Below, in pieces: positions 9,199 to 57,273 of a stretch of DNA of 64,000 bases. Position 1 is the stretch's first letter. Every line of letters begins with the position of its first letter. The DNA comes from Chloroflexaceae bacterium (GTDB lineage: Bacteria > Chloroflexota > Chloroflexia > Chloroflexales > Chloroflexaceae): the NCBI GenBank assembly GCA_034436755.1, contig DAOTVB010000015.1:56516-120515 (forward strand), in the 5' to 3' direction. Below the pieces are notes generated by a model. It was given only the letters and a program-made list of their open reading frames with translations, was not told where the DNA came from and ran no database searches. A program made the position numbers and the translations under genes.

Positions 9199-10980
9199 AT
9201 GTTCCGTTCGCATACCTGCGGCGAGTTGCGTTCAGAATACGCTGGACACGAAGTCACGCTGGCGGGCTGGGTTAATCGCCGACGCGATCACGGCCCGCTG
9301 ATTTTTATCGATCTGCGCGATCGCTATGGGATGACTCAGGTTGTCTTTGATGCCAACGGCGCGCCCGAGGCCCACGCCGTTGCGAGTGAGGCCCGGCCGG
9401 AATATGTTTTGCAGGTGCGCGGCCTGGTGCGCCCTCGCCCCGAAGATGCGATCAACCCGGAGATTACGACCGGCGCCATTGAGGTGCAGGCTGTTTCGGC
9501 CAATGTGCTTAACACCGCCCGCACTCCGCTACCGCTCTATATCTCCAAGGAGGGCAACGAGGAAGAAGCGTTGCGCCTCAAATATCGCTATCTCGATCTG
9601 CGGCGCGAGCGGATGCAGCAGAACCTGATCCTGCGCCATCGCGTGGTCAAGTTTATGCGCGATTTCCTGGACCGCGAGGGCTTTGTCGAGATTGAAACGC
9701 CCATCCTGATCAAGTCTACGCCGGAGGGCGCGCGGGACTACCTGGTGCCCAGCCGGCTGCATGCGGGCAAGTTCTATGCGCTGCCACAGAGCCCCCAGCA
9801 ACTCAAGCAGTTGCTGATGATTGCGGGCTACGATAAATATTTTCAGATTGCGCGTTGCTTCCGGGACGAAGATCAGCGGGCCGACCGCCAGCCTGAGTTT
9901 ACCCAGCTTGACCTGGAGATGAGCTTCGTGGAGCAAGAGGATGTGATTAATCTGATGGAGCGCCTCTTCACCGAGTTGGTCCGCGAGGTGACACCGCATA
10001 AGCGGCTGATTACCCCCTTCCCCCGAATGACCTATGCCGAGGCTATGGCAACGTATGGCACCGACCGGCCTGATCTGCGCTATGGTCTGGAACTGGTGGA
10101 TCTTTCGGATCTGGTTGCCCAGACCGAATTTAAGGTGTTTCGCGGCGCACTGGAGCAGGGCGGTCAGGTTAAAGGGGTACGTATCCCGGGCTGTGGTGGT
10201 TACAGCCGCAAACAACTGGACGAAGTGACCGATCTGGCACGCAACGCGGGGGCGAAGGGCCTGGCCTGGGCCGCACTGCCTGAGGAGAACAGCGCCGAAA
10301 TCCGCTCGTCGTTCGGGCGCTTTGTGACTGATACCGAGATGAGCGATATCGTTACGCGGCTGGCGGGGCAGCCGGGCGATCTGCTGCTGCTGGTTGCCGA
10401 TCAGCCTGCCGTTGTTGCTATGGTGCTGGACCGACTGCGGCGGGAGTTTGCGCTACGGCTGAAACTGATCGACACGGAACTGCTATCGTTTGCCTGGATT
10501 GTCGATTTCCCACTGGTTGAGTGGAATGAAGATGAGCAACGCTGGGATGCCGTTCATCATCCCTTTACCGCGCCGCTTGACGCAGATCTGGCGCTGCTTG
10601 ATAGTGATCTCGGTAAAGTGCGCGCTAAAGCCTACGACCTGATCCTCAATGGCTATGAGGCGGGCGGCGGCAGCATCAGAATTCACCGCCGCGATATTCA
10701 GCAGAAAATGTTCGCCAGCCTGGGGATCAGCCCGGAGGAAGCCCAGGCCCAGTTCGGGCATATGCTCGAGGCATTCGAGTATGGCGCTCCACCGCACGGC
10801 GGCATTGCGCCCGGCATCGACCGATTGGTTATGATCCTGGCTGATGAGCCGACCATCCGTGAGGTCATGGCGTTTCCGAAAACGCAGCAGGCAATTGACC
10901 TTATGACCAGCGCGCCATCGCCCGTCGATGAACGTCAACTCAAAGAACTGCACATTGCGCTACGCGAAAAACCGGTGTAA
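9199..10980 (+). CDS. aspS: Aspartyl-tRNA synthetase
   Basis: 593 aa with class II aaRS motifs and a typical AspRS N-terminal OB fold ([11 protein letters not shown]). AGAGGAG RBS upstream. Confidence 0.95.
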
Positions 10981-18820: not shown

Positions 18821-19996
18821 TTACCGCCGGGGGCGTTGCGTTGCCACCCCATTCCGCTGCGCCTGATCCAATTGCTGCACGATACCGACCACGAACCGGG
18901 TTGTGCGTTCCAGCATCTGGGCATCGAGGTTTGCCAGCGGTTTAGTGTCGGAGATGGTCACAGGCTCGTCCGTGTGCGATAGAATGGAGAGCACCCGATA
19001 ACTGCGTGCGTAGAGCAGGGTGGCAAGCGAGGGGGCCGTGCGATAGGGACGCGGTTCGGCATTGATCAGCGGATCGCGGGTATCGACCAGTTCGGCCAGT
19101 TGAACCAGCCGGGCATCGGCGGTATGCCGGCGCACCACGCCCTCGCGCGAGGCATAGGTCAACTGACCGGCAGCGATATGTTCCAGGTTGAGAAAGAGTG
19201 TCTGTGCCGCAGGAAAGGGATAGCGTGCCAGCAGATCGCGGACGCCGCTGCTGCCGGTTGCCGTCGCTCCCAGGGCAACGGTCCAGAGTTCCACCGTCTG
19301 CAGCGTCTGCAACTGTTCCGCCGCCGCGAGCAGCACCGCCAGCGCCCCCGCCCCACCGGGCGATGTCCCCAGGCGCGCCCGCTGCGGCAGCAGCAGCAAG
19401 AGCAGGTAGACCGCCGGCAGCACCTGACCATACCACCAGATCTCGCTGGGCGCGAACGCATGTAGCAGCGCCAGCAGCGTCAGCAGACCAAACACCACCA
19501 TCCGGCTGATGAAGGCGACCCGATGCTGACCCAAAAAGCGGTACAACCCGGTTCGGTCGGGGTATGAGTCGAGGGGCGCCAGCAGCACCACCCGCCAGCG
19601 GGGTGCTTTCTCACCCGCGCGTGTGCCGACAATATTCTGGCTGTCGCGCTGCAATGAGAGGGGCGGCAAGGGGATAACCAGTGCATCACCCAGGGTCAGG
19701 AGAAAGCCCCAGAGCGCCAGCAGGAACGAGGGGAGCGGCAGCCAGCGGGTCAGCAGCGCAGCGGTCAACCCCAGCAGTGCCAGCAGGGGATAGGTCAACC
19801 CGGCGTGCGTGGCGGCGCGGAAGGTATCAGCGTTGACACGCATACCCGCACGCCGCAACCGCCCATCAACATAGGCGGCGGCCTGCGCCTCGGCCAGCGA
19901 GGTTGCCTGACGCGGCCCGATGACCGTCACCAGATGGCGAACGACTTCGAGCGCGTCATTCCGGCGCGAACGTGAAAGCATAAGTTTGCTGACCAC
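18821..19996 (-). CDS. M28-family peptidase-like membrane protein, possibly non-catalytic
   Basis: M28-like blocks (NIVGTRAGE, VVLLAPLDSY) are interrupted by about 4 TM helices. The canonical His/Asp metal ligands are not obvious. Confidence 0.5.
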   Translation of the reverse strand: MVSKLMLSRSRRNDALEVVRHLVTVIGPRQATSLAEAQAAAYVDGRLRRAGMRVNADTFRAATHAGLTYPLLALLGLTAALLTRWLPLPSFLLALWGFLLTLGDALVIPLPPLSLQRDSQNIVGTRAGEKAPRWRVVLLAPLDSYPDRTGLYRFLGQHRVAFISRMVVFGLLTLLALLHAFAPSEIWWYGQVLPAVYLLLLLLPQRARLGTSPGGAGALAVLLAAAEQLQTLQTVELWTVALGATATGSSGVRDLLARYPFPAAQTLFLNLEHIAAGQLTYASREGVVRRHTADARLVQLAELVDTRDPLINAEPRPYRTAPSLATLLYARSYRVLSILSHTDEPVTISDTKPLANLDAQMLERTTRFVVGIVQQLDQAQRNGVATQRPRR

Positions 19997-20054: not shown

Positions 20055-22394
20055 TTACGGCAGATCCGCACCATAGCGCCACTGATGATAGTGCCGGCCG
20101 ACATTTCCCATCTCAACCTGCCACTCGGCGGGATTGGTGGGAGTGTAGGTCAACACCCGACGTTCAAACGCCTGTACCAGCACATCCTGCGGTTCGCCGG
20201 CGACACTGACACGGATCCAGTAGGGTTCGCTAATCGGATAGCCAACGGTTTGCAACCAGTTGAGCAGCGGGCCGCGGGTAAACTCACCCGCCTCATAGAC
20301 ATCGCCCCAGGCATTCAGGTACTGCCAGAAGACGGTCGGGATATTATGGCCGGTCGTGGGCACGAAATGGGCCAGTCGGGTTGCAGATGAAGTTGGCCCG
20401 GCATATTCAGTGATGCGACCATCACGCTGAAGCTGTTCCGTCACCTGCTCCCCGGTGCGGTCCGCAAAGGTACGCTCAAGGAGGGTATGCAGGCCGGCAT
20501 AAGTCGGTGTTGAGTCGCTGTTGCTATCACCCGCCAGCGCAATATCGGCGGCTTCGTGGGGCACAAAGTCGGTATCACCCACCTGAATGCGCCCGCTGAT
20601 CATCTCCTGGACAAGCAATCCATTCGTGGCCTCTCCCGTAGAGGCAGCCGTTTCCATGCGGGCCTTATCAAAATATTGCACCTGACGTAGCCCATCGGCG
20701 GCCTGAGTGTAAGATTCCTCACCGATCATCAGGCTGTCGGGCCCCCACATCCAACTGCGCTCAACATACTTGCCGGCGACCGGCTGATCATTGCGATGCC
20801 ACATCTGCTCAAAGACAGCATCGGCAAACGGAAACGGTGGAACGACCGTGCGTACTTCCGGGCGCGCCGTGGAGGTAGGCGTTGGCACCGCTCGATAGTT
20901 GATCGTCTCCAGTTCTTCATCGTCAACCCCATCCAGCGTAAACTCTTCCACGGGTGTTGCCAGGAGCGTTGGCGATGGATTGGGGTCAGCCGGGTCGGGT
21001 GTTGGCGTCGGCGTATCCAGGGAGGGCAGATCTTCCGGGTTAGTACGTCCGCAGTCGGTCTGGCCCGGCACACAGAGCTGCAAGAAGAGGTCATAGACAA
21101 TATACTGATTGCCAATATCACCGATATTCTTGACCTGCGCATAGTAGAAACCGTCTACTTCGGGGATAAACTCAATCTGCGAGTCGAGCGTTTCGCCTCC
21201 CGGAATATCGTCATTGATATCGAGAATGCTGACACCATCGCGGTCGGTCAACACCAGAACCGTATCAGCCCCGGCCTGCGTTTCATCATTAATCGATCGC
21301 GGCCCCCGGTAGCGACTGGTGTCGGTAAAGAGGAAGTAGCGCTTCCCGGTTTTCCCGAAGAATGTCACCCAGTCCGCATCACCATCGGGACAGAGGCGAC
21401 GCGCCTCCTGTAGCTCATTTGAGGTAATCAGACGCGCCTCTTCCGGCAGGCCATCCGGCTCAAACAGGTCCAGACAGACCTCAGAAATGGTGCTGGGGGT
21501 CGGGCCGGTGCCTTCACCAGTCAGAGTAATGACATATTCGCGCCCCGGACCACCGCTGCCGGAAACGTCGCGCACCCGGATGAAATACTTGGCATCTTCC
21601 GGAGCCTGCCAGAGATAAATGCGCGGGCGCAGATCATTCGGATTTTCTACATTGAAGTCATCATTAAACGCCAGTCTGTTACCATCTTCATCAGTCAGTT
21701 CGAGAGTCAGATCGAGCCCGGCGTCCATTTCAAGAATACTGATCGTATAGACCTTGCCCGCGATGCCGCCAAACTCCAGCCAGTCCTCATCGCCCTGGGG
21801 ACAGATGGTATGCAACTGGTTGACGAACACATCGATCTGCCGGGCATTCTCCCGTTCATCATCGTCCTCAAAGGCATCTTCACAGATAACCCCTTCGGTG
21901 GGAGTAGGTGTATTAGTGCTATCCGGCGTACGCGTAGGCGTGGGCGTGGGCCCCGTAATATTGATGGTCAACTGCGCATTTGCCTCGATATCGCTATCAT
22001 CCACATCCCGGGCGCGCAGGCGTCCACGTTCAGTGCGTTGGATCTCATCATCCGGGATCGTTATAAGAACAGTAATCGTTGCCCGATCACCACGGGGGAT
22101 GGTGACAGTAGGATTAGGGATAACAACTTCAAAATCGATGGGCAAGTCAAACACATCAATGGAGAAGGTACGATCCTCCTCCTCACTTGTGTTTGACAGG
22201 ATGAGATCGGTGAGAAATGTAACCGTTTCGCCCGGATTCTGCGTCGCTTCTAACTCTGTATCTGCAAACTGGACCACTGGTTCCGCCTGTGCCAGAACAA
22301 GATCAGGCAGTGGCTGTGTTGCCAGGATCAGCACAACGAGAATTGCCAGCGTGGTTATTGCGAGGTTTCGCAGGTGGTTAAGCGGTCGTGTCAC
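20055..22394 (-). CDS. Secreted multidomain protein: signal peptide, CARDB-like region, 2x PPC (pre-peptidase C-terminal) domains, PT-linkers, C-terminal domain of unknown function
   Basis: The N-terminal signal is LAILVVLILATQPLP. Two CPxGDxDW motifs are present, plus PTPTPT linkers. The ORF is 779 aa. Confidence 0.6.
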   Translation of the reverse strand: MTRPLNHLRNLAITTLAILVVLILATQPLPDLVLAQAEPVVQFADTELEATQNPGETVTFLTDLILSNTSEEEDRTFSIDVFDLPIDFEVVIPNPTVTIPRGDRATITVLITIPDDEIQRTERGRLRARDVDDSDIEANAQLTINITGPTPTPTRTPDSTNTPTPTEGVICEDAFEDDDERENARQIDVFVNQLHTICPQGDEDWLEFGGIAGKVYTISILEMDAGLDLTLELTDEDGNRLAFNDDFNVENPNDLRPRIYLWQAPEDAKYFIRVRDVSGSGGPGREYVITLTGEGTGPTPSTISEVCLDLFEPDGLPEEARLITSNELQEARRLCPDGDADWVTFFGKTGKRYFLFTDTSRYRGPRSINDETQAGADTVLVLTDRDGVSILDINDDIPGGETLDSQIEFIPEVDGFYYAQVKNIGDIGNQYIVYDLFLQLCVPGQTDCGRTNPEDLPSLDTPTPTPDPADPNPSPTLLATPVEEFTLDGVDDEELETINYRAVPTPTSTARPEVRTVVPPFPFADAVFEQMWHRNDQPVAGKYVERSWMWGPDSLMIGEESYTQAADGLRQVQYFDKARMETAASTGEATNGLLVQEMISGRIQVGDTDFVPHEAADIALAGDSNSDSTPTYAGLHTLLERTFADRTGEQVTEQLQRDGRITEYAGPTSSATRLAHFVPTTGHNIPTVFWQYLNAWGDVYEAGEFTRGPLLNWLQTVGYPISEPYWIRVSVAGEPQDVLVQAFERRVLTYTPTNPAEWQVEMGNVGRHYHQWRYGADLP

Positions 22395-46788: not shown

Positions 46789-46892
46789 CTGTTGGTGGGT
46801 TGTTGTGATGTCATAACCGCAGGCGGGCCGAGGTGTGGTACACTCTTATCCAGACCCATATCGTGCCAAGATTAGCGAAAGGAGCTAACCGT

Positions 46893-47651
46893 ATGCCCGA
46901 GCATAAGCCGATCGCGCAGCAGCCGGATGCATGGTGTACCCTGGCGCAGCAGACGACCGAAGCCATGCAGGTCTGGTATGATTTCTTCCAGATGACTAAC
47001 ATCACCGGGTTGCATATGGTTGGGATGGGGGTTTATACCACCACTGCGCTGTTGAAAACAAATACGCACCTGCTGCAGACGCTCCTGGAGAATGCCTTCA
47101 GTATAAGTCGGGTTCATGGCTATGACTGGCAGACAACGCTCTTGCCAGAGAACGGCATGTATGCCCGGCAAGCGCCCCCAGTGGACAACCGGCCCATAAC
47201 CAATGGCAATGGCAATGGCAATGGTTCGCCGGCAGAACCAACCATTGATGCTTCCCCGGAAGTGCCGGTAGCAGTTACCACACCTGTCACCAACGGCGCG
47301 GTGGATAGTGTAGTAGAAGTTGAGGTCAGCCCCCCGCAACCGCCCCGCCGGGAAGATATCGGCGCGGTAGGCCCAGAGGCCGGCTTTTATTTCACCGGAC
47401 CTGACGATCAAGCGCACCACGCGGTCCACAATCTGACCGATTTTGTCCAGCAGAGTGCAGCGGTTGACGACACGACCTGGATCTACCATCTGCACCGGGG
47501 CGACTATAGCAACTGGTTTCGCTATGTCGTTGCGGATGCCGAACTGGCCGACGCCGCCGCGCAGATTGAGCAGGAGGCGGATGTCACCCCGGCAGACAGC
47601 CGCGACCAGGTGCAGGCGCTGATCACGGAGCGCTACGCGGTGCAGGTGTGA
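46893..47651 (+). CDS. Hypothetical protein with internal (NG)4 repeat
   Basis: AAAGGAG RBS before ATG 46893. (GGCAAT)3 encodes NGNGNG. No recognisable family. Confidence 0.45.
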   Translation: MPEHKPIAQQPDAWCTLAQQTTEAMQVWYDFFQMTNITGLHMVGMGVYTTTALLKTNTHLLQTLLENAFSISRVHGYDWQTTLLPENGMYARQAPPVDNRPITNGNGNGNGSPAEPTIDASPEVPVAVTTPVTNGAVDSVVEVEVSPPQPPRREDIGAVGPEAGFYFTGPDDQAHHAVHNLTDFVQQSAAVDDTTWIYHLHRGDYSNWFRYVVADAELADAAAQIEQEADVTPADSRDQVQALITERYAVQV

Positions 47652-47659
47652 GTTCTATC

Positions 47660-47880
47660 GCCATTTGTCATTTGACAGGAGTTACGCGGTTGAGATCCAA
47701 ACCGGACGTTTGAACCGATGGAAGTCTGTTTCGCCTGCGGCAGCATGGTACATTTTGATCTTTTTTCACAAAAAATTTGCACAAAGTGCAAATTTTTTGT
47801 GAAAAAAGATGGTTTCTTCCGCCCTGCCGGAGGCGGAATCTCCTGTCGGGTCAACGACCGCGTAAGTCGTGTCAAATGAC
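47660..47880. repeat. Repeat element copy 12; hairpin 47765-47803; the 3' module contains a perfect 17-bp palindrome
   Basis: cgcctgcggcagcatggtac, then ttcacaaaaaatttgcacaaagtgcaaattttttgtgaa, then cttccgccctgccggaggcggaatctcctgtcgggtcaacgaccgcgtaagtcgtgtcaaatgacacgacttacgcgg. Confidence 0.9.
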
Positions 47881-48239: not shown

Positions 48240-50732
48240 TTATTTCTTGCGCCGGACCCAGCCGCGTTTAGGCTCCTCAACGCTCTGGCGCAATTTCGCC
48301 AGATCATTCTGGATCTCGTCCGGCTCCGGTTCCGGTTCACGCTCGGGCGGTTCCTGCGGCTGGCGCGGCTCCTCCTGCGCCGCCAGATCGCTCAATGAGA
48401 TCCGTTTGCCCGTCTGCACCTTTTCCGCACCCGTGGTCGTCTCGGCTGTCGGTTCGGGCAGATCCACCGGCCGGGGCGAGGGCGGTTGCTCCTCCTGCGC
48501 CGCCAGGTCACTCAGCGAGATCCGTTTGCCCGGTTTGATCTTTTCCGCACCCGTGGTCGTCTCGGCTGTCGGTTCGGGCAGATCCACCGGCTGGGGGGGG
48601 GATGGTTGCTCCGGTTGCTCCTCCTGCGCCGCCAGGTCACTCAGCGAGATCCGTTTGCCCGGCTTAAAGCGGGTGGTTTCGGGCGTCTCTGCGGCCGCGG
48701 GCGGTTCCTCCAGCATCGGGGCGAAGGGCTGATCCGCCGGGAGCATTTCCGCACCAGGCTGCTCCGGCAGCGGCGGCATAGCCGGCTCGGGTTGCGCCGG
48801 TTCAACCGGTTCAGCCACCGGCGCGCCCGCCTGACCATTAACCGACCGCAGTGCTGCCGGCCGCGCCACACCCACCTGTTCATCTACCACGGGGGCGGAG
48901 ATGACCGCATCAACATAGGGACTGGGAGCCTGCGCCGCACCCAGCGCGACTAACCACGCCCAGATCTGTGCGCAACGCTGCGTGGCATCCTCCGGCAGGC
49001 GCAGCGGTCGCCCGCGCGCATCGATGACCACACCCAGCGCGCTCCCCTTGATGGCGGCAATATCGGTCTGAACTTCTTCCCCCGGTTCATTCTGCCCGAT
49101 CCGCACATTGGCCGCCGGTCGCAGGGTTAACTGCCCGCTGCTGCTCTGATCCAGCCGCAGACGGGCAATCTGCCCATGCCGCACCGTTACCCGCCGCGAC
49201 TTGCCGCGCCGGGAAGTCAACTCGGCCTCAACCGCGACCTCACCGGGCTTGCCCTCCCCCAGCGGTACCACGCAGGTTGCCAGCGGCACATTACGCAGCA
49301 GATCACGTTCAAAGAGCGTCACCGCCGCATCGGGATTGAGTTTTGCCAGCACCCCACAGGCCGGCAAGAGCCCCAGGATATCGAGATGCAGATCGAGCGC
49401 CAGCAGACTCTCCCCAGTGGTCGGCTGGAGGACATCCAGCAACATCAACGCCGCCATACCGGGATGCGGCGCATGCGCCAGCACCCCGCCACCCGCGATC
49501 ACCAGATCATAGTCCAGGTCAGGATCTTCATCGGTGAGGGTTTCCAGCAGGAGTGCCAGCACCTCGCGGGTTATGGCCTGTTCGATAAACACATCTTCGC
49601 GGCTGGCGGGCAACATCTGCGGGCGCAACAGCTTATTCAGCAGCCAGTGCGTCAGGTCGGCCTCGCTGATGGGGAAGGGCAGCCAGCGGGCAATATTGGC
49701 CACACCGCGCGCTTTGAGCAGGTTGGTAATGCCATACGCGGTGCCACATGCGCCCAGGATCGATAGGGTATAACTGCCGGGGCCGGCGTGGAAGGCGCTG
49801 CTGCCGGCCGCGCCGACATCCAGCGTTAACACCTTGCGGCTATTCCGCTCGGCGATAAAGCGGGTCATCAGCCCGGACATACTACAGACCGTTGTCACCG
49901 GCACATGACACATGCGACGCAACGTCGGGAGACCGGGCAGACGGGTGAGGACGCGCTCGTCGTACAGACGACTCAGCGCCTCGCGGGCGGGCTCGAGCCG
50001 CTCCTGCGTCAGCGATGGTCGCACATTATCTACCACCAGCGTCTCGGCCCGCCCAGAGAGCGCCTCGACAACCTGATCGCGGGCATCGCTGTTGCCGGCA
50101 TAGATCACCGGACGGGCCATCAGGTTCTGGCTTTGCTGGCCGCTGGCATCAACCGAGGTACGCAGCGCGGTTAACCCCACGATATGCGCCAGACGGTGCA
50201 GCGCATCGGTTGCGCCACCCTCAAGCCCCCCCGCAATAAAGACGGCATCCGGCTCCAGGGAGAGCATCGCCTGGATCTGCCGCACAATCCAGGAAGCGCC
50301 GCCGCCACTGGAGCGCATCATGGCATCATCAAGCGTAATCACCTGCAGAATGCTGGTGTAGGTGCTGCGACAGGCATGCAGCGCACTCCGGGCCGAGACA
50401 TCGCTGGCAATTGCCGTCACCACCAGCGCCAGCGTGCCGGTCGCACTGGTGACACAGATCAGCCGGTCAACGCCGTCACGCTCGTTATTCTGCGGCATCA
50501 GCAGTTGACCTTCGCGCAGCAGTTGCCGCCCGATAGTCTCGCTGATCTGCGCGGCGGCTTCCAGGATGCCGAACAGGGCATTCTGGTGTGGCGGCTCCAG
50601 GCTGCTCGGCACCTCGGCCCGACCAATCATGCGGTGCTCGCCATCAACCGTATCAACCAGCGTGACACGCGTGATCAGGCTGCCAATTTCGGCAATAAGG
50701 ATCGAATCAGGTGGTGGTGGTGTATCAGGCAT
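48240..50732 (-). CDS. GlmL/MutL-type (PF13941-like) actin-fold ATPase domain protein with C-terminal 3x tandem ~38-aa repeats and a basic tail
   Basis: The N-terminal ILIAEIGSLITRVTLVD phosphate-1-like motif is followed by an about 600-aa actin-fold-like region. The C-terminus carries PVDLPEPTAETTTGAEKIKPGKRISLSDLAAQEEQP x3 and ends ...KRGWVRRKK. The family assignment rests on pattern memory. Confidence 0.55.
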   Translation of the reverse strand: MPDTPPPPDSILIAEIGSLITRVTLVDTVDGEHRMIGRAEVPSSLEPPHQNALFGILEAAAQISETIGRQLLREGQLLMPQNNERDGVDRLICVTSATGTLALVVTAIASDVSARSALHACRSTYTSILQVITLDDAMMRSSGGGASWIVRQIQAMLSLEPDAVFIAGGLEGGATDALHRLAHIVGLTALRTSVDASGQQSQNLMARPVIYAGNSDARDQVVEALSGRAETLVVDNVRPSLTQERLEPAREALSRLYDERVLTRLPGLPTLRRMCHVPVTTVCSMSGLMTRFIAERNSRKVLTLDVGAAGSSAFHAGPGSYTLSILGACGTAYGITNLLKARGVANIARWLPFPISEADLTHWLLNKLLRPQMLPASREDVFIEQAITREVLALLLETLTDEDPDLDYDLVIAGGGVLAHAPHPGMAALMLLDVLQPTTGESLLALDLHLDILGLLPACGVLAKLNPDAAVTLFERDLLRNVPLATCVVPLGEGKPGEVAVEAELTSRRGKSRRVTVRHGQIARLRLDQSSSGQLTLRPAANVRIGQNEPGEEVQTDIAAIKGSALGVVIDARGRPLRLPEDATQRCAQIWAWLVALGAAQAPSPYVDAVISAPVVDEQVGVARPAALRSVNGQAGAPVAEPVEPAQPEPAMPPLPEQPGAEMLPADQPFAPMLEEPPAAAETPETTRFKPGKRISLSDLAAQEEQPEQPSPPQPVDLPEPTAETTTGAEKIKPGKRISLSDLAAQEEQPPSPRPVDLPEPTAETTTGAEKVQTGKRISLSDLAAQEEPRQPQEPPEREPEPEPDEIQNDLAKLRQSVEEPKRGWVRRKK

Positions 50733-50810: not shown

Positions 50811-51461
50811 TCAAAAGGTCCAGGTCACCAGAAACTCGAGACGCTCACTCAGCGCCGCCAGGTAGGTGCGCAACGCCCCGGCCAGAAAGAAGCCCAGTGC
50901 AACCATCAGGAGCCAGTAGCCGACATGGGCACTGCCCGCCACCAGCCGCCCCAGACCCGTATCGCGCCGCACCGTAAAGTAGAAGTAGCTCAACGTCAGG
51001 ATCACGCCTATAGCCAGCACCGCCGTGCCGATAAGCTGCGGCAGGGTGTTTCCGGCTGGTTGCACCGTATCGATCCACTGCGGGTAGAGCGTCCCCACCA
51101 GCACGCCACCCAGCGCCAGAGCCGCGCCGACCCCAAAGAGCAGCGCCAGGGGAATATTTGCCAGCCAGGAGAAGCCCTGCCGCCCGGTAATCCGGGGCAG
51201 CAGCAGCAGACCCAGGATAAACGGCACGAGCGTGAGGTAGAGATCGAGACTCTGCGGGTTCTCCGCCCCCAGCAAGACTTGAACGACCGCCGGCCAGAGC
51301 ACCTGATGGTAGAGCACCACAAAGGCATAGCCCAGCGACACCCCGATAAACAGGTATTGCGCCAGCCGGAACAGCGGATTATTTTCCGCCCAGACGATCC
51401 GGCTGAACACAAACAGGGTCAGCACAACGCCAACAATTTTGACTACAAGCGCCGTCGCCAT
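50811..51461 (-). CDS. Polytopic integral membrane protein, ~6 TM, unknown function
   Basis: 216 aa, almost entirely hydrophobic helices. Its start overlaps the upstream giant gene stop by 1 nt (TAATG). Confidence 0.5.
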   Translation of the reverse strand: MATALVVKIVGVVLTLFVFSRIVWAENNPLFRLAQYLFIGVSLGYAFVVLYHQVLWPAVVQVLLGAENPQSLDLYLTLVPFILGLLLLPRITGRQGFSWLANIPLALLFGVGAALALGGVLVGTLYPQWIDTVQPAGNTLPQLIGTAVLAIGVILTLSYFYFTVRRDTGLGRLVAGSAHVGYWLLMVALGFFLAGALRTYLAALSERLEFLVTWTF

Positions 51462-54400
51462 TACTCCTCGCTCTCCGGGTGCAGCTTCGGCTTCGGCTGG
51501 AGCAGCAGGCCGGCAATGCCCCCGACGATAATCAGGACCACAAAGACCAGCGCGGCGAAATGCTGCAATCCACTGGAGCGAATAGCCGCCACATCATCCA
51601 CACCGCCGCCACTGGCCGCCGCATAATTTAGCGCGCCCTGCCGCCCGACCAGTTGGTAGACATTCGGGTAGCGCAGGTAGGGTTGCACCACCGGCGCGGT
51701 CTCAAACGGCAGCAGGAAGGCCATCGGCACGTCGGGGGTGCTGGTATGCACCTGCTCAATCCAGCCCTGCACATCCTGCGGCTGATCGGCCATAATCAGG
51801 ATCAGATCAAAGTCGGCAACCGTTTCCAGTTGAGTCTGTTCGACCATCCAGCTTCTGGTAGCATCCGCACCCGAGAATGTTCTGAATGACTCGGTAAAAT
51901 TCTGCTGAACCAGACGGCGCAGGGCAAACTCGCCTCCCGGCTGGTAGCCCATCAGCACATAGTCCCGCCCCCCCAGGTCTGCGGTGCGCTGCTCGTCGGT
52001 ATTGTAGCCGGCGGCGCGCAGGGGATCACGAAAGTTGAAGGAGAGCAGTGTGCCCTGCGGATCGGTGCTGAGCACCACAAAGCGCACATTCTGCTCAATC
52101 AGATGCTGCGTAACGGCGGTCTCGAGCGGACGCAGTTCGCTGCTGCGCTGGGCATCCCACTCGTAGGCCACCAGCACAACATCCTCCTCCGAAAGCCCGG
52201 CGACAATGCTGGACAACTCACCGGCAGCGGGGGCCGCCGGATTGGCACTTCCCAGAAACCCTGTTACGGACGGAACAAACAGCCCAATCAGCAGCGCCAG
52301 TGCCAGCAACAGGTAGAGGACGCGCTCCAGACCAACCCGCCGCCAGCGCGCCGGTTCGGCGGGTGCCGGCGTGAGGGTCGTCTCCGGAAATGGTCGGGCC
52401 ACCAGGCGTTGCAGCAGCGCGGCCGCTTCCATCTGGGCCGGGCTGCGCGTGAAGGTTGGCCGGGGCAGCACGGTTGGTGAGGTGGTAGTTGCCACGACTG
52501 GTCCTTCGGCCTCTTCTTCGCCCACACCCAGGTTCGACAGCCAGTCTACCTGCTGCGACTCTTTGGTGCTGACGCGGGGCTCCGGTTCGGTGGGCCGCAA
52601 CCACTCCGGCAGATCCGCTCCACCCAGGAAGCTGCTGCCCTCATCAGCGGTACCGCGTGGTTGCACCGCAGCGGGAGCGGGGGCCTGCGCTACCGGCTCC
52701 TCCCGCAACCAGTCCGGAACATCCTCCTCCGACCCTTCATCCTGCAGCCAGGACGGCAGTGCGTCATCAACCGGCTCTGCGCCGGATGGTGCCGGTGGCG
52801 GCGGGGGTGCGGACGAGCGCGGCGGGAGTGCCGGCTCTTCTAACTCGGTATCGGCACCCTGCAACCAGGAGGGCAGCCCGCCGGTCTGGTCCGCCAGGGG
52901 ATCGTTGGACTCGTCGGTCATCCAGGGCGGCAGATCGCTGCTATCGGTTGTGTCGGTTGTGTCGCTGCCGGCAGCCGGAGGTGCGCTCTCGCCACCAGTC
53001 AGCCAGGCAGGGATATCTTCGGCTCCGGTATCCGCCGGCCCAGCCGGTTCCGCCGTTGCTGCGTCATCACGCAACCAGTCGGGAACATCCGCATCCGGGG
53101 CCGCCGGCGCAGACGGTGGGGCCGCCGACCCGGTATCCGCCGGTCCAGCCGGTTCCGCCGTTGCCGCGTCATCACGCAACCAGTCGGGAACATCCACATC
53201 CGGGGCTGCCGGCGCAGACGGTGGGGCTGCCGACCCGGCATCTCGCAGCCAGTCCGGCTCTTCGGCTTCCGGCAGTGCCTCGGCTGTCGGCGCAGACGGT
53301 GCATCGGCGGATAGCCAGTCAGGCAACTCCTCTTTCTCGACCACATCGGGCATGCGGGGCGGTTCCGCGTCCGACTCCGCGCTCACATCAGCCCGCAGCC
53401 AACTGGGCAAATCTTCCTGGGAGGCTGCCGCACCGGTTGAACCTACATTATCCGCCAGCCAGTCAGGGAGTTCCGTTTCGGCAGCCGCGTCTGCTGGCGC
53501 GGGTGTATCGGCCTCTGACACGGATGGCGGTTCATCTATCGACTGCAACCAGTCAGGCATTGCCCCGGCGTCCGCCATCGCGCCGCCCTCTTCGGGTGGC
53601 GCAGCCTCATCACTCTCGGGCATGGGGGGTGGTTCATCAACGCCCCGCAGCCAACTGGGTATCGCGGCATCTTCCGGCGCGGTTGGGGCTGCGGGCACCT
53701 CGGACTGAGGAGACCAGTCCGGCGTACTGCCGGCTTCGGTCGGCGACTCATCTGCGGAAGCACCACTCAGCCAGGAGGGCATCTCCGGCTCGCTGCCCGA
53801 CGCGGCGGGCTGGTCAAACCAGTTGGTCGTATCCCCCGCTCCGGTTGATGGATCTTCAGGAGTCGCGCCACTCAGCCAGGCGGGCATTTCCGGCGCACCA
53901 CCCGGCTCGCTGCCCGACGCGGCGGGCTGGTCAAACCAGTTGGTCGTATCCCCCGCTCCGGTTGATGGATCTTCAGAAGTCGCGCCACTCAGCCAGGCGG
54001 GCATCTCCGGTTCGCCGCCCGACGCGGTGGGCGCGGTAGTTTCCGGCGGTGCCCCCGGTTCACCCTGGAACCAGTCGGGGATACCGGTTTCTGTGACACC
54101 GGGGGGTTGCTCCGGCGACTGCAACCAGTCCGGCGACTCAGCCGATGATGGTGGTGCTGCCGGCATATCCAAACCAGTTTCGGCAATATCGCGGGAGACT
54201 TCATCGGGCGAGATATCGCGCAGCCAGTCGGGGATACCGGGCTCATCGCCGGCAGGGGATGCGGACGGCGTATCCGCCGGTGCTGCCTCTGCAAACCAGT
54301 CCGGCGACTCTGCGGCCCCAGGTGGCGTGGTGGGAGATCCACCTTCCGTCGCCGCAATATCGCGGGCCATCTCGTCCGGCGAAATATCGCGCAGCCAGTC

Positions 54401-55291
54401 GGGGATACCGGGCTCTTCGGATAATTCCTCCTGGTGCTGGTGGGCTGCGTCCGCAGCCGAAGCCGCGCCGGCCACCATCCAATCAGATGACTCCGTTTCT
54501 GCGGGGGCGGGTGGCGTGAACGGCTCCGGTTCCGCGCTATCGCGGGCTACTTCGTCCGGTGAGATATCCCGCAGCCAGTCGGGCACACCGGTATCACCCT
54601 CACCCTCTGGGCGCTCCGCCTGCTCGGCAGGGGCTGCGGTTGGGCCACCCATCTCCGGTTGCTCGGCAGGCGCAGGCGCAGACTCGGCATCATCTTCCCG
54701 GCCCAGACTGCGCAACCAGTCGGTTGCGCCGACGGGCATCTGCACCCGTGACGCAGGCTGATCCCCGGCTTGATCGGCCGCCGCTGCTTCGGTGGGGAAG
54801 CTATCGGCAGCCTCCGCCGGTGCCGACTCCTCCGGCTGGGCAGTTGCGCGGAGCCAGTCCGGCATTTCTGCGTCATCGGGCTGCGAGCTATCAGACGGGG
54901 CAGCCTCCGCCGGCAGATCGGACGACTGCGCGGCCGTCAGACTGGTGAGCCAATCCGGCTGATCATCAACCGGCAGCGGCTCGTCCTCTTCCATTGCCCC
55001 GATATCACTCTGCAGGTCACGCAGCCAGTCCGGAATAGCCGCATCCGCAGCACTGGACGGGGCTGACTCCTCACTGCGGAACTGGTCAGAGTCCACCGCA
55101 GCCGCAGCCGCAGCCCCCTGCAACCAGTCCGGCACCGCCTCCTCCGGCTCATCGGGTGGGGCGGCCTGCTCCTCGGGCGGAGCGGCCCGCGAAGGCGGAC
55201 GGGGAGGTAGAGGTACGCCCCGCAGCCAGGGTGGCAGCCAGGTTGCATCGTCTGAGTCACCAAATTGCGATCCGCGAGATATCCGATCCAT
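51461..55291 (-). CDS. Giant acidic repeat protein (1276 aa): about 900 aa of low-complexity D/E/P/A/S-rich sequence with >25 [IL]PDW[LF] short-motif repeats, then a TM helix, an about 330-aa domain, a second TM helix and a short tail
   Basis: An uninterrupted ORF. IPDWLRDISPDE(V/M)ARD and related motifs recur every 25-40 aa, and near-identical 105-114-bp DNA repeats are present. The C-terminus carries two TM segments (VLYLLLALALLIGLFVPSV and FAALVFVVLIIVGGIAGLLL). Confidence 0.7.
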   Translation of the reverse strand: MDRISRGSQFGDSDDATWLPPWLRGVPLPPRPPSRAAPPEEQAAPPDEPEEAVPDWLQGAAAAAAVDSDQFRSEESAPSSAADAAIPDWLRDLQSDIGAMEEDEPLPVDDQPDWLTSLTAAQSSDLPAEAAPSDSSQPDDAEMPDWLRATAQPEESAPAEAADSFPTEAAAADQAGDQPASRVQMPVGATDWLRSLGREDDAESAPAPAEQPEMGGPTAAPAEQAERPEGEGDTGVPDWLRDISPDEVARDSAEPEPFTPPAPAETESSDWMVAGAASAADAAHQHQEELSEEPGIPDWLRDISPDEMARDIAATEGGSPTTPPGAAESPDWFAEAAPADTPSASPAGDEPGIPDWLRDISPDEVSRDIAETGLDMPAAPPSSAESPDWLQSPEQPPGVTETGIPDWFQGEPGAPPETTAPTASGGEPEMPAWLSGATSEDPSTGAGDTTNWFDQPAASGSEPGGAPEMPAWLSGATPEDPSTGAGDTTNWFDQPAASGSEPEMPSWLSGASADESPTEAGSTPDWSPQSEVPAAPTAPEDAAIPSWLRGVDEPPPMPESDEAAPPEEGGAMADAGAMPDWLQSIDEPPSVSEADTPAPADAAAETELPDWLADNVGSTGAAASQEDLPSWLRADVSAESDAEPPRMPDVVEKEELPDWLSADAPSAPTAEALPEAEEPDWLRDAGSAAPPSAPAAPDVDVPDWLRDDAATAEPAGPADTGSAAPPSAPAAPDADVPDWLRDDAATAEPAGPADTGAEDIPAWLTGGESAPPAAGSDTTDTTDSSDLPPWMTDESNDPLADQTGGLPSWLQGADTELEEPALPPRSSAPPPPPAPSGAEPVDDALPSWLQDEGSEEDVPDWLREEPVAQAPAPAAVQPRGTADEGSSFLGGADLPEWLRPTEPEPRVSTKESQQVDWLSNLGVGEEEAEGPVVATTTSPTVLPRPTFTRSPAQMEAAALLQRLVARPFPETTLTPAPAEPARWRRVGLERVLYLLLALALLIGLFVPSVTGFLGSANPAAPAAGELSSIVAGLSEEDVVLVAYEWDAQRSSELRPLETAVTQHLIEQNVRFVVLSTDPQGTLLSFNFRDPLRAAGYNTDEQRTADLGGRDYVLMGYQPGGEFALRRLVQQNFTESFRTFSGADATRSWMVEQTQLETVADFDLILIMADQPQDVQGWIEQVHTSTPDVPMAFLLPFETAPVVQPYLRYPNVYQLVGRQGALNYAAASGGGVDDVAAIRSSGLQHFAALVFVVLIIVGGIAGLLLQPKPKLHPESEE

Positions 55292-55406: not shown

Positions 55407-56048
55407 CTATCGGTCAAGGTAGGGCTGATCAAAGCCGAGCAACACCCGCACACTTGCCACCAGCGTACCGATGGCGGCCCCCAGCAGCAACCCGCGCGCC
55501 CCCGCCAGCGTGACATACTCATTAAACCAGCCAAGTGCTTCGCCGACCAGGGGCAGTGCGGCAACCGGCGGCAACCCCAGAATAAGCACCAGCAGCGCCA
55601 CCACGACAATCACCATCGCCGGAACATTCCGCTCCCGCACCGTACGCAGGATCGCACTCAGGCTAAAGAAGGCCAGAAGCGCCAGCAGACTGCTGGCAAG
55701 CGGCACATAGACCGCCTCAAAGAGCCGCCGGATTGGCTCCTCGGCCAGATTAACTCCGGGCGGACCAGCCAGACCGACAATAATCACCGTAAACATTGCC
55801 AACAGCAGCACGGCACTATAGATCCAGTCGGCATCGCGCCGGAACACGCGTGCGGCATGCGAAAAGGCCACATTAATCAACCCGACCAGGAGGGCCAGGG
55901 CCGTCAGGATCGCCGCCCACTCCACCAGATAGCTGGAGAGGCCACCAACGCCCGGTGCAGCCCGGGCGAAGTCTAACAACACGATGGCCCCGGCGACACC
56001 GGCAATCAGGGTTGCCAGGAGGCGTTTTGGATCGCGGAAAAAGGTCAT
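55407..56048 (-). CDS. Polytopic integral membrane protein, ~6 TM, unknown function
   Basis: 213 aa, hydrophobic throughout. It lies 16 nt downstream of the preceding gene. Confidence 0.5.
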   Translation of the reverse strand: MTFFRDPKRLLATLIAGVAGAIVLLDFARAAPGVGGLSSYLVEWAAILTALALLVGLINVAFSHAARVFRRDADWIYSAVLLLAMFTVIIVGLAGPPGVNLAEEPIRRLFEAVYVPLASSLLALLAFFSLSAILRTVRERNVPAMVIVVVALLVLILGLPPVAALPLVGEALGWFNEYVTLAGARGLLLGAAIGTLVASVRVLLGFDQPYLDR

Positions 56049-56064
56049 TCACTACCCTCTCACG

Positions 56065-56871
56065 CTATAACAGCCCCGGCAGCGGCGGCAGGCCGAGCGT
56101 CGGCTGGAGCAGACTGTAGAGCAGTCCGCCAATAATCAACAGGATAATCAGCGTACGCAAGAAGTCCTGGGTCAACAGCCGCGACTGGGGCGCGGGGATC
56201 GTTGCCAGGTAGGCCTCCGCCGCAAACACTTCCTCGCCAATCAAGACTGACCGACTGCTCAAAAACATCACCGGCAGCGCGGCGGAAGAGGTACTACCCG
56301 TCACCTGGGGCACCTGGCGCATTGCGCCTTCCTCGCCCAGCAGCAGAAACTCCTGCCCGAAGCTCCCCAGCAGTTGGCTGGCCTCTAACCGCTGCCGGGC
56401 ATAGATCGCCGCAACCCCGGCTGCATAGGCCATCGAGTCATCGTGGGCCAGCAGTTGCACATTGCGCGGATGGTAATCCTGCCCCTGTCCCGCCTGCTGG
56501 TAGGACTGGCGAATCGCCCCGCGCAGTGCCAGATGCGACACCGCATCGCCACTGCTTGCCAGGATATGCGCGCCGTTGAAGGCCGCTTCACTCGCCACCC
56601 GCTCAACGGTCAGCAACCCAACCACCGTTTCGGCGGTAGTTGCGCGATTACCGATCGTCCCGGCCCCCGGCGACACATGGATTGCGCGCCCGGTTTCGGC
56701 GCCGCGCCCGAGGGCGGCCCAGAGCAGATCGAGTGCCGGCAACGGCCGACGAAAGGGTGTCCATCCGGCGCGGATACGCGCATGATACCAGAGCGTCAGG
56801 ATCAACACACCCAACGCAACAACTAAAAGAAGAATCGTTTCCGGGGGGAAATTCAGGAGAGGCATAGACAC
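56065..56871 (-). CDS. Membrane protein: N-terminal TM, about 200-aa soluble domain, C-terminal TM; first gene of the operon
   Basis: GAGGAG RBS 6 nt before the ATG. TMs are LLLVVALGVLILTLW and LIILLIIGGLLYSLL. Confidence 0.5.
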   Translation of the reverse strand: MSMPLLNFPPETILLLVVALGVLILTLWYHARIRAGWTPFRRPLPALDLLWAALGRGAETGRAIHVSPGAGTIGNRATTAETVVGLLTVERVASEAAFNGAHILASSGDAVSHLALRGAIRQSYQQAGQGQDYHPRNVQLLAHDDSMAYAAGVAAIYARQRLEASQLLGSFGQEFLLLGEEGAMRQVPQVTGSTSSAALPVMFLSSRSVLIGEEVFAAEAYLATIPAPQSRLLTQDFLRTLIILLIIGGLLYSLLQPTLGLPPLPGLL

Positions 56872-57024: not shown

Positions 57025-57273
57025 TCAACTTTCCTGACGGGCTAAAAGACGGCGTAATTCTTTCCAGCCGGCCTCCTTCGTCAGGGCCACAGCGTAACGC
57101 TCAAAACTACAGCCGGTCGTAAAAGGCCGGGCGAACAGGGCCAACTGGCTGCTGAGGAAGTCGAAGGGCCGGATCATATCCAGGGCGAAGCTGACCGGCG
57201 CACGCAGCCCGGCGTTGGAGAGATGATCCGCCAGATGCTGGAGCGCCTCATGATGCTGGTCGGTTGGGGACAT
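57025..57273 (-). CDS. Small hypothetical protein, 82 aa
   Basis: ORF from the internal Met (MSPTDQHHEALQHL...). It overlaps the SRPBCC gene 3' end by about 26 nt. Weak call. Confidence 0.3.
   Translation of the reverse strand: MSPTDQHHEALQHLADHLSNAGLRAPVSFALDMIRPFDFLSSQLALFARPFTTGCSFERYAVALTKEAGWKELRRLLARQES

Follow-up and report, generated by a model that had tools for sequence, protein, structure and literature searches.

The 64,000-nucleotide (nt) stretch of Chloroflexaceae bacterium DNA analyzed here (assembly GCA_034436755.1, contig DAOTVB010000015.1, positions 56,516 to 120,515; called the window below) carries at 51461..55291 on its minus strand an intact open reading frame (ORF) encoding a bitopic membrane protein of 1276 amino acids (aa). 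To judge from its sequence, this protein belongs to a large unnamed Chloroflexota family characterized by an array of PxWL motifs, two transmembrane (TM) helices and a Rossmann-like ectodomain. The gene is real, its motif array exists and is conserved, and the copy number of the motifs varies; the elements of its membrane topology can be recognized, it lies in a conserved operon, and the product of a neighboring gene has an actin fold. In the reading which we favor, and to which we give a probability of roughly one half, the protein is anchored in the membrane and offers a multivalent array of docking sites to a partner in the cytoplasm, which is most likely the ATPase encoded in the same operon. 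The protein family and its operon are uncharacterized and extend over the whole phylum; the principle of the motif array is already known in eukaryotes, and the pairs MamJ-MamK, PilN-PilM and FtsZ-FtsA are partial bacterial parallels. All the coordinates given below are those of the window, and the gene, its repeats and the other genes of the operon are on the minus strand.

The N-terminal part of the protein (aa 1-930, 52502..55291) is a polyacidic, disordered arm carrying 35 motifs of the type [DE]-Φ-P-[DSA]-W-L-[RQ], as judged from motif counts, shuffles, charge, spacing and a disorder proxy. The first-pass annotation of this DNA, made from the sequence alone, had described more than 25 [IL]PDW[LF] motifs in an acidic, Cys-free and disordered N-terminal region of about 900 aa, and this description was confirmed. 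All the 35 Trp residues located between aa 18 and aa 917 fall in motifs of the x-P-[DSA]-W-[LFM] type (the whole protein has 39 Trp and no Cys), and P.W[LFM] occurs 28 times in the protein, whereas 2000 composition-preserving shuffles gave 0.46 on average and never more than 4. Taking Trp as position 0, the 35 motifs show Asp or Glu at -4, Leu, Ile, Val or Met at -3, Pro at -2 (29/35), Asp, Ser or Ala at -1, Leu at +1 (28/35), Arg or Gln at +2 and Asp or Gly at +3, and another hydrophobic residue is often present at +4; the peptides EEPGIPDWLRDISPDEV and VDDALPSWLQDEG are examples. The median spacing of the motifs is 25.5 aa (range 13-47), the overlapping Trp at aa 18 and 22 being 4 aa apart. 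Asp and Glu account for 21.7% of the arm and Lys and Arg for 3.3%, which gives a net charge of -171; in the charge-hydropathy plot, all of the 34 sliding windows of 100 aa fall on the side of disorder, and the arm segment at aa 284-378 was modeled by AlphaFold2 (AF2) with a predicted local distance difference test score (pLDDT) of 33-48. Elsewhere in the window, the PxWL motif occurs at background frequency only and never in a real-looking array. The protein matches no family at E≤0.01 in Pfam-A and NCBIfam and none in PADLOC, and the Pfam scan detected no FtsZ or tubulin domain in it. A profile search of the PDB gave no match below E 0.29, and sequence and profile searches of the PDB with the ectodomain gave no meaningful match. 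An exact copy of the 1276-aa protein, from a Chloroflexaceae metagenome-assembled genome, is present in the database under no other name than 'hypothetical protein [Chloroflexaceae bacterium]' (P0082).

Parts of the array have been duplicated recently. Tandem Repeats Finder (TRF) and a repeat finder located two recent in-frame tandem duplications, one consisting of a 105-nt unit (35 aa, ..DVPDWLRDDAATAEPAGPADTG..) present in 2.1 copies at 53025..53242 (94% identity, the copies differing at 5 positions), and the other of a 117-nt unit (39 aa, EMPAWLSGAT..DTTNWFDQPAASGSEP) present in 1.9 copies at 53785..54010 (98% identity; 53785..54018 if taken as two copies), of which a more diverged third copy lies at 53680-53796. 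Three older copies of a unit of about 57-60 aa, spaced 171 and 180 nt apart, were found at 54183..54599: this unit reads SPDWF...G-IPDWLRDISPDEV, with the core G-IPDWLRDISPDEV-RD, and its 66-nt cores at 54183, 54354 and 54534 show 88% and 79% identity. The lengths of all the DNA repeats in the array are multiples of three, and the copies of the recent duplications differ by 5-6 nt. The near-identical tandem repeats listed in the first-pass annotation are therefore where it had placed them, within a few bases, and its proposal that the array changes its copy number by recombination agrees with the whole-unit insertions and deletions (indels) found on comparing the window protein with three close relatives. 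These relatives (P0083, P0084 and P0085), which show 83-91% identity with it in the aligned columns, differ from it mainly by large indels, each corresponding to entire repeats. Both recent duplications, of 35 and 39 aa, are specific to the window lineage, the second 35-aa copy being absent in all three relatives. Repeat number, which the first-pass annotation had suggested counting in orthologues, also differs in the case of the 57-aa unit, of which the window has three copies, P0083 four and P0085 fewer; the latter protein carries a small duplication of its own. The array varies in its middle part, and the motifs which keep their positions are the first one (LPPWLRGVPLPP), the 'MPVGATDWLRSLG' motif and the final two ahead of the membrane. 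Since whole-unit indels occur between close relatives and the identical array is present in an independent assembly, this is real copy-number evolution, and the aligned sequences indicate that the array expands and contracts through in-frame recombination between units.

The independent assembly in question (GCA_046541795.1, locus L011, a 13-kb contig) shows three single-nucleotide polymorphisms (SNPs) over 9.8 kb with respect to the window; the 1276-aa protein which it encodes is the same residue for residue, with both of the recent duplications. Two of the SNPs are inside the gene and leave the minus-strand protein unchanged. Since an independent assembly with three SNPs encodes the same protein, the array is not an assembly artefact, and the frameshift or assembly error which the first-pass annotation had named as a possible refutation was not borne out. 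PxWL arrays do damage short-read assemblies, hence the many gapped or 'partial' members of the family. The Oscillochloris sp. ZM17-4 orthologue (L004, ~9650-9750) appears as two called genes split by a scaffold gap of 100 N within the array, a Chloroflexus orthologue (L005, position 1) is cut by the end of the contig, and many family entries in the databases are labeled 'partial'; in practice, short-read assemblies often break genes of this kind, leave gaps in them or list them as 'partial'. On the plus strand, three ORFs of 445, 460 and 312 aa lie over the repeats (52371-54761) and would encode Ser/Gly/Ala/Pro/Arg-rich mirror images of the array; they were judged to be antisense artefacts of GC-rich repeats and were rejected as genes.

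The arm is followed by a C-terminal module. A juxtamembrane helix (aa 951-965, QMEAAALLQRLVARP, 52397..52441), which comes after the last two positionally conserved motifs, is conserved in the alignments and corresponds to a helix at residues 16-30 of the AF2 model. It precedes TM helix 1 (aa 991-1013, 52253..52321, identified by hydropathy and as an AF2 helix), a Rossmann-like α/β domain which is probably extracytoplasmic (aa 1014-1244, 51560..52252), TM helix 2 (aa 1245-1264, 51500..51559, again from hydropathy and AF2) and the short tail QPKPKLHPESEE, which is probably cytoplasmic. The AF2 model of the C-terminus, with a pLDDT of 82 and a predicted template modeling score (pTM) of 0.73, shows the α/β domain between the two TM helices, as the first-pass annotation had proposed. 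The arm can be placed in the cytoplasm, along with the short tail, and the Rossmann-like domain outside, because the protein has no signal peptide, because its charges follow the positive-inside pattern (five Arg directly before TM helix 1 and none after it, and Lys residues after TM helix 2), and because relatives carry zinc ribbons: an N-terminal CxxC...CxxC (Cys4) zinc ribbon is present in 57 of the 138 full-length family representatives. The same three features speak against an extracellular arm, a reading which was rejected. Two other candidate relationships were rejected: DUF6754, which also has a TM-domain-TM layout, is not a paralogue of the C-terminal module (hhalign probability 1.7%), and a precursor of ribosomally synthesized and post-translationally modified peptides with repeated core peptides is at odds with the conserved architecture of two TM helices and an ectodomain and with the lack of adjacent maturation enzymes.

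Searches with the last 319 aa of the protein yielded 81 relatives, with E-values down to 1e-90, all of which belong to Chloroflexales. Searches with the arm reached further and gave full-length orthologues of 800-1330 aa in Chloroploca, Kouleothrix, Roseiflexaceae, Herpetosiphonaceae, Anaerolineaceae and unclassified Chloroflexota, the C-terminal TM-ectodomain-TM module being present in 114 of the 120 arm matches. In a profile search of 1.84 billion representatives, 2488 proteins were found at E≤1e-30, the counts at weaker E-values being inflated by the inclusion of part of the repeat region in the profile. A single-sequence scan of genome contigs detected only two true loci and one spurious Agromyces match; orthologues are present at loci L001, L002 and L004-L011. 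In the 138 full-length representatives, the number of P-x-W-[LMFIV] motifs ranges from 2 to 50, with a median of 18; 81% of their arm Trp residues are within a motif, and all their arms are net acidic (-64 to -462). Their pooled consensus (D/E, L/V/I, P, D/A/S, W, L, R/Q, D/E) is that of the window protein, and the Anaerolineae-like members show the form [ST]-P-D-W-L-[KR]-[SA]-[FM], with a further hydrophobic position at +4. The window protein has the C-terminal module, the acidic arm with 28-35 motifs and the operon context of the family, of which it is an ordinary to large member, made conspicuous by its two very recent duplications; the first-pass annotation's word 'giant' suits its 1276 aa in a relative sense only, since the longest representative has 2219 aa.

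The motifs themselves appear to be under closer constraint than the sequences between them. In pairwise comparisons with seven orthologues, identity amounts to 48-65% at motif positions -3 to +1, 25-39% in the linkers and 41-66% in the folded ectodomain, so that the motif positions are about as conserved as a folded domain; this comparison is partly circular, because the high score of Trp in BLOSUM62 helps to anchor the alignments. PxWL arrays also occur in a second family, represented by P0159 (L012, 3548-6850) and P0188 (L013, 2025-6332), which have 15-28 motifs and tetratricopeptide-repeat (TPR) domains at both ends and are devoid of the TM module. The genes encoding these proteins follow a histone-deacetylase-like gene; in L013, ndk is located directly downstream, while in L012 an RcpC-like gene precedes ndk and Tad pilus genes are present further downstream.

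The gene is part of a cluster, all on the minus strand, in which an ORF of 82 aa, a DUF6754 gene, a gene encoding a TM protein of 213 aa, the PxWL-array gene, a gene encoding a TM protein of 216 aa and the gene of a GlmL/MutL-family ATPase succeed each other. The order from DUF6754 to the MutL-like gene was found in the window and at L001, L002, L004, L006, L007, L009, L010 and L011, and the downstream half of the operon at L005 and L008. The same gene order is thus present at every locus for which the flank is available, in Chloroflexales (L001, L002, L004, L005 and L011) as well as at the distant loci of zinc-ribbon-bearing and Anaerolineae-like genomes (L006-L010), and its conservation across classes argues for the operon genes forming a single functional unit.

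The last gene of the cluster (48240..50732) encodes an 830-aa actin-fold ATPase with a disordered tail, which matches the GlmL/MutL model PF13941 over its full length (profile positions 1-450/450, E 2.6e-61, 208 bits vs. a cut-off of 27). With the NCBIfam GlmL equivalog NF040745, it scores 59.8 bits vs. a cut-off of 475, and no glutamate mutase genes were found at any of the 11 loci. The databases name this protein 'glutamate mutase L': since its score is far below the equivalog cut-off and no mutase genes are nearby, this label is almost certainly a mis-transfer. The ATPase also differs from GlmL/MutL in that it carries an extra β-rich region of about 130 aa, a disordered tail and a basic C-terminal peptide. 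Its core of about 600 aa shows 54-64% identity across Chloroflexales, which is far above the conservation of the PxWL-array protein. The closest solved folds appear to be FtsA and PilM. Sequence and profile searches of the PDB with the ATPase gave no meaningful match, and the protein belongs by sequence to PF13941 and not to FtsA. To our knowledge, FtsA and PilM are the two proteins with an actin fold for which the binding of short partner peptides is known in bacteria.

The tail of the ATPase contains a tandem repeat of its own (120 nt in 2.4 copies, 88% identity, 48368..48661), encoding KPGKRISLSDLAAQEE three times. The tails of Chloroflexales ATPases contain 0-5 copies of KPG[KS]RISLSDLAAQ (five at L001, two at L002, one at L004, none at L005 and three in the window), and this unit is a second linear motif of variable copy number in the same operon. 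The tail is net acidic except for its last ~10 residues, which form a basic-hydrophobic peptide (..EEPKRGWVRRKK, 48243..48272) conserved in the homologues: 118 of the 120 closest ones end with a sequence of the ..VEEPKKRG[LFWI]F[GR]RKK type, and one of the two exceptions is a truncated partial sequence. MinD and FtsA have weak, valency-dependent C-terminal membrane-targeting peptides (reviewed in PMC6803595), and the C-terminal peptide of the ATPase looks like a targeting sequence of this kind. At locus L006 (12684-14810), a distant operon of the zinc-ribbon type, the tail of the ATPase itself bears two PxWL motifs (EIPAWLQED and EMPEWLQED), which replace the RISLSDL units and tie the motif to the ATPase.

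The features of the array that suggest docking are its invariant W-L core, the Pro residue which might start a helix, the acidic context, the conservation of the motifs combined with the drift of the linkers, and the turnover of the copy number. The motifs would be protein-docking sites, each copy of which might fold upon binding into an amphipathic helix of one to two turns, its W and L residues entering a hydrophobic groove of the cytoplasmic partner, and the arm would concentrate many copies of this partner beneath the membrane. The two TM helices and the Rossmann-like ectodomain may join the protein to the remaining three membrane proteins encoded in the operon, and the number of docking sites would evolve via in-frame unequal recombination between the repeat units. 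The partner is possibly the ATPase of the operon, which would be the most economical reader because of the strict linkage between the genes, because FtsA and PilM appear to be its nearest structures, and because one orthologue carries the motif in its tail; it would share the plan of these two proteins, in which a core with the actin fold is joined through a flexible linker to an end, here basic-hydrophobic and conserved, suited to a membrane or a polyanion.

The multivalent binding platform proposed in the first-pass annotation is plausible and fits the selection on the motif which is apparent from the motif and linker identities and from the consensus of the 138 representatives. An AF2 single-chain chimera (ATPase aa 1-660 and array protein aa 284-378, with three motifs joined to the ATPase core through its own linker and a multiple alignment of 41 sequences) was used to look for the W-binding pocket which the first-pass annotation had suggested seeking on the ATPase: the motifs were not confidently docked and had a pLDDT of 33-48, which is a weak negative, single-chain AF2 being of limited power for weak peptide interactions and often missing low-affinity peptide sites. 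Since PxWL arrays are also present in the separate TPR-flanked family, the reader of the motif may be a general cellular factor encoded outside the operon.

Among the alternatives, the motifs might mimic the FtsZ tail and bind its readers (FtsA, SepF or similar proteins), and the protein would then titrate the components of the divisome or position them along the membrane in these bacteria, which are mostly filamentous; we regard this reading as unlikely. The likeness to eukaryotic W-x-x-[LF] motifs put forward in the first-pass annotation is imprecise, since W and L are adjacent here, and the closest pattern found is that of the FtsZ C-terminal peptide, which is read by FtsA, SepF and ZipA. 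The two look alike in that an acidic lead-in comes first, then an aliphatic residue and Pro, next a small and an aromatic residue, and finally Leu with a basic or polar residue after it; both stand within a disordered segment. The FtsZ C-terminal domain peptide of C. glutamicum crystallized with SepF is DDLDVPSFLQ (PMC7118173), and the key contacts in E. coli FtsZ are I374, F377 and L378, which amounts to Φ-x-x-Φ-L (PMC8669495). Sixteen of the 35 window motifs, as counted by eye from the motif list, fit [ILVM]-P-x-W-[LMF]-[RKQ], and DALPSWLQ, EDLPSWLR, GGLPSWLQ and EDIPAWLT are among the motifs of the window. Moreover, the readers of FtsZ include an actin-fold protein in which a linker is combined with a C-terminal peptide that binds the membrane, and the ATPase of the operon appears to be built in this way. 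On the other hand, the Trp residue, which is invariant in the motifs, takes the place of the Phe present in the tails cited; 35 internal copies in a membrane protein differ from the single copy ending a tubulin-like GTPase; no division gene was found in or near the operon; and a degenerate pattern of six residues can match by chance, a match of this kind not amounting to homology.

An extended form of the docking model, to which we would give no better odds than to FtsZ mimicry, is that the operon might encode a Chloroflexota-wide membrane-cytoskeleton module, in which the GlmL-family protein would be an actin-fold protein of the FtsA/PilM kind and the array protein its multivalent organizer or nucleator. 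The GlmL-family protein would be tethered to the membrane via its basic C-terminal peptide, and up to 50 FtsZ-tail-like PxWL helices, about 25 aa apart, would each capture one ATPase subunit or one divisome reader of the FtsZ tail, so that a cytoplasmic polymer might be coupled to the extracytoplasmic Rossmann-like domain during filament growth or septation.

The charge and spacing of the arm could also be explained without any specific reader, the W-L pairs being weak interfacial anchors and the polyacidic linkers an entropic, cation-binding brush under the membrane. Trp favors membrane interfaces, a TM helix ties the arm to the membrane, and a net charge of -171 combined with regular spacing would suit a polymer brush; anionic bacterial membranes should nevertheless repel a polyanion, the conserved Pro at -2, the acidic residues at -1 and -4 and the R/Q at +2 exceed what an interfacial anchor needs, and PxWL motifs also occur in soluble TPR proteins without any TM helix. 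This explanation seems to us to be less likely than FtsZ mimicry. We rank lower again the possibility that the polyanionic arm and the polybasic ends or tails of the ATPase might form a membrane-attached coacervate in which W/L and R would be generic stickers. The charge of the arm would suit it, as would the multivalency of both proteins and the conserved ..KKRGLFGRKK end and KPGKRISLSDL units (the latter in variable copy number) of the ATPase, but the tail of the ATPase is net acidic apart from its last ~10 residues, and generic stickers need no invariant P-x-W-L register.

The presence of TPR domains on both sides of the PxWL array in the second family (P0159, P0188) suggests yet another kind of reader: the motifs might be ligands of TPR proteins, much as W-acidic motifs are ligands of kinesin light chain. 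A TPR gene is located about 6 kb from the operon in Chloroflexales, but its product shows only generic TPR similarity to P0159, this gene is not near the operon at L006-L010, and TPR genes are very common in the phylum, so that we consider this reading improbable and the least likely of those calling for a biological function. Lastly, although such arrays break short-read assemblies elsewhere (the gap in ZM17-4, the contig end in Chloroflexus, the 'partial' entries), the idea that the ORF or its repeats might result from misassembly, a frameshift or collapsed repeats is essentially excluded by a frame which is continuous over 1276 aa, by duplications which are all multiples of three with copies differing by 5-6 nt, by the identical protein encoded in an independent assembly with three SNPs, and by full-length orthologues sharing the same architecture.

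The docking array favored here can be compared with several known systems. In the eukaryotic endocytic scaffolds, the DPF repeats of Eps15 and the DPW repeats of epsin bind the AP-2 appendages. Like the protein under study, these scaffolds carry many aromatic motifs of 3-6 residues in an acidic context within a long disordered region, and by analogy with their low-affinity, multivalent docking at the membrane, the PxWL array might work in a similar way; they are not homologous to it, however, the order of the residues being P-D-W-L here and D-P-W/F there, and the present protein comes from a bacterium and possesses a TM anchor as well as an ectodomain. In magnetotactic bacteria, MamJ is an acidic, Ala/Pro/Glu-rich repeat protein which links a membrane structure to the actin-like MamK, and its repeat number varies between strains. 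The two systems have in common an acidic repeat protein of variable repeat number encoded beside an actin-like ATPase, but MamJ has neither PxWL motifs nor a TM or ectodomain module, and MamK is a canonical filament-forming actin which does not belong to the GlmL family; we know of no magnetosomes in Chloroflexota. In the case of PilM and PilN from the type IV pilus alignment complex, for which the structure PDB 5eou bears the title 'PilM:PilN1-12', PilN has a single N-terminal peptide with a different motif, and the operon studied here contains no other pilus genes.

Arrays of short linear motifs on disordered scaffolds are central to eukaryotic cell biology and have rarely been documented in bacteria's own machinery, whereas here a whole phylum conserves a membrane-anchored array in which one Trp-Leu motif is repeated 2-50 times and which is encoded in an operon with an actin-fold ATPase. 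We found no literature on PDWL repeats, on DUF6754, on PF13941 outside glutamate mutase, on this operon or on actin-like/MutL proteins in Chloroflexus. If the motifs do recruit the ATPase or the readers of the FtsZ tail, this would be a new bacterial membrane-cytoskeleton system and would provide a handle on the cell biology of Chloroflexota, including filament growth, septation and the organization of the envelope. The motif is short, shows no variation in W and L and is also present in cultured relatives such as Oscillochloris trichoides, which makes the hypothesis open to peptide work.

As regards the other genes of the operon, the polytopic membrane protein of 216 aa (50811..51461), the start codon of which overlaps the stop codon of the array gene, occupies a conserved position at all the loci and matches no family in Pfam or NCBIfam. 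The polytopic membrane protein of 213 aa (55407..56048) is not its paralogue, since no similarity between the two was detected with BLASTP. The DUF6754 protein (56065..56871; Pfam PF20539, E 2.2e-35) consists of a TM helix, a soluble domain of about 200 aa and a second TM helix. Sequence and profile searches of the PDB identified no solved or named relatives of these three proteins. The small ORF of 82 aa (57025..57273) precedes the DUF6754 gene at most of the loci, with homologues at L004, L006, L007, L009, L010 and L011, and is probably the sixth gene of the operon; a match to a sigma-70-like promoter (TTGACA-17-TACACT) lies at 57028-57000, at its 3' end. None of the six operon proteins matched a defence model in PADLOC. 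Only in Chloroflexales is the cluster flanked by genes encoding RecG, a polyketide-cyclase-like protein, a cyclophilin, UvdE and a TPR protein.

In the Anaerolineae-like operons (L008, 5313-7033; L009, 12719-14421; L007, 13492-14070), two extra genes follow the MutL-like gene and encode a soluble protein of about 350 aa and a bitopic protein of about 200 aa. The latter has an LPxTG-like end (ALPTTGFAD or ALPNTGFAD, followed by a hydrophobic stretch and RR), the sequence of which suggests that it may be a sortase substrate. Downstream of the operon in the window, a perfect 20-bp AT-rich inverted repeat (TTTTTTCACAAAAAATTTGC...GCAAATTTTTTGTGAAAAAA, 47761-47807) is located between the MutL-like gene and the convergent ORF at 46833-47651 and is probably a bidirectional terminator. 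Further away, two adjacent minus-strand ORFs of 391 aa (18821-19996) and 779 aa (20055-22394), neither of which has a Pfam match at E≤1e-5, sit among the housekeeping genes holA and those encoding DAHP synthase, MurJ and AspRS.

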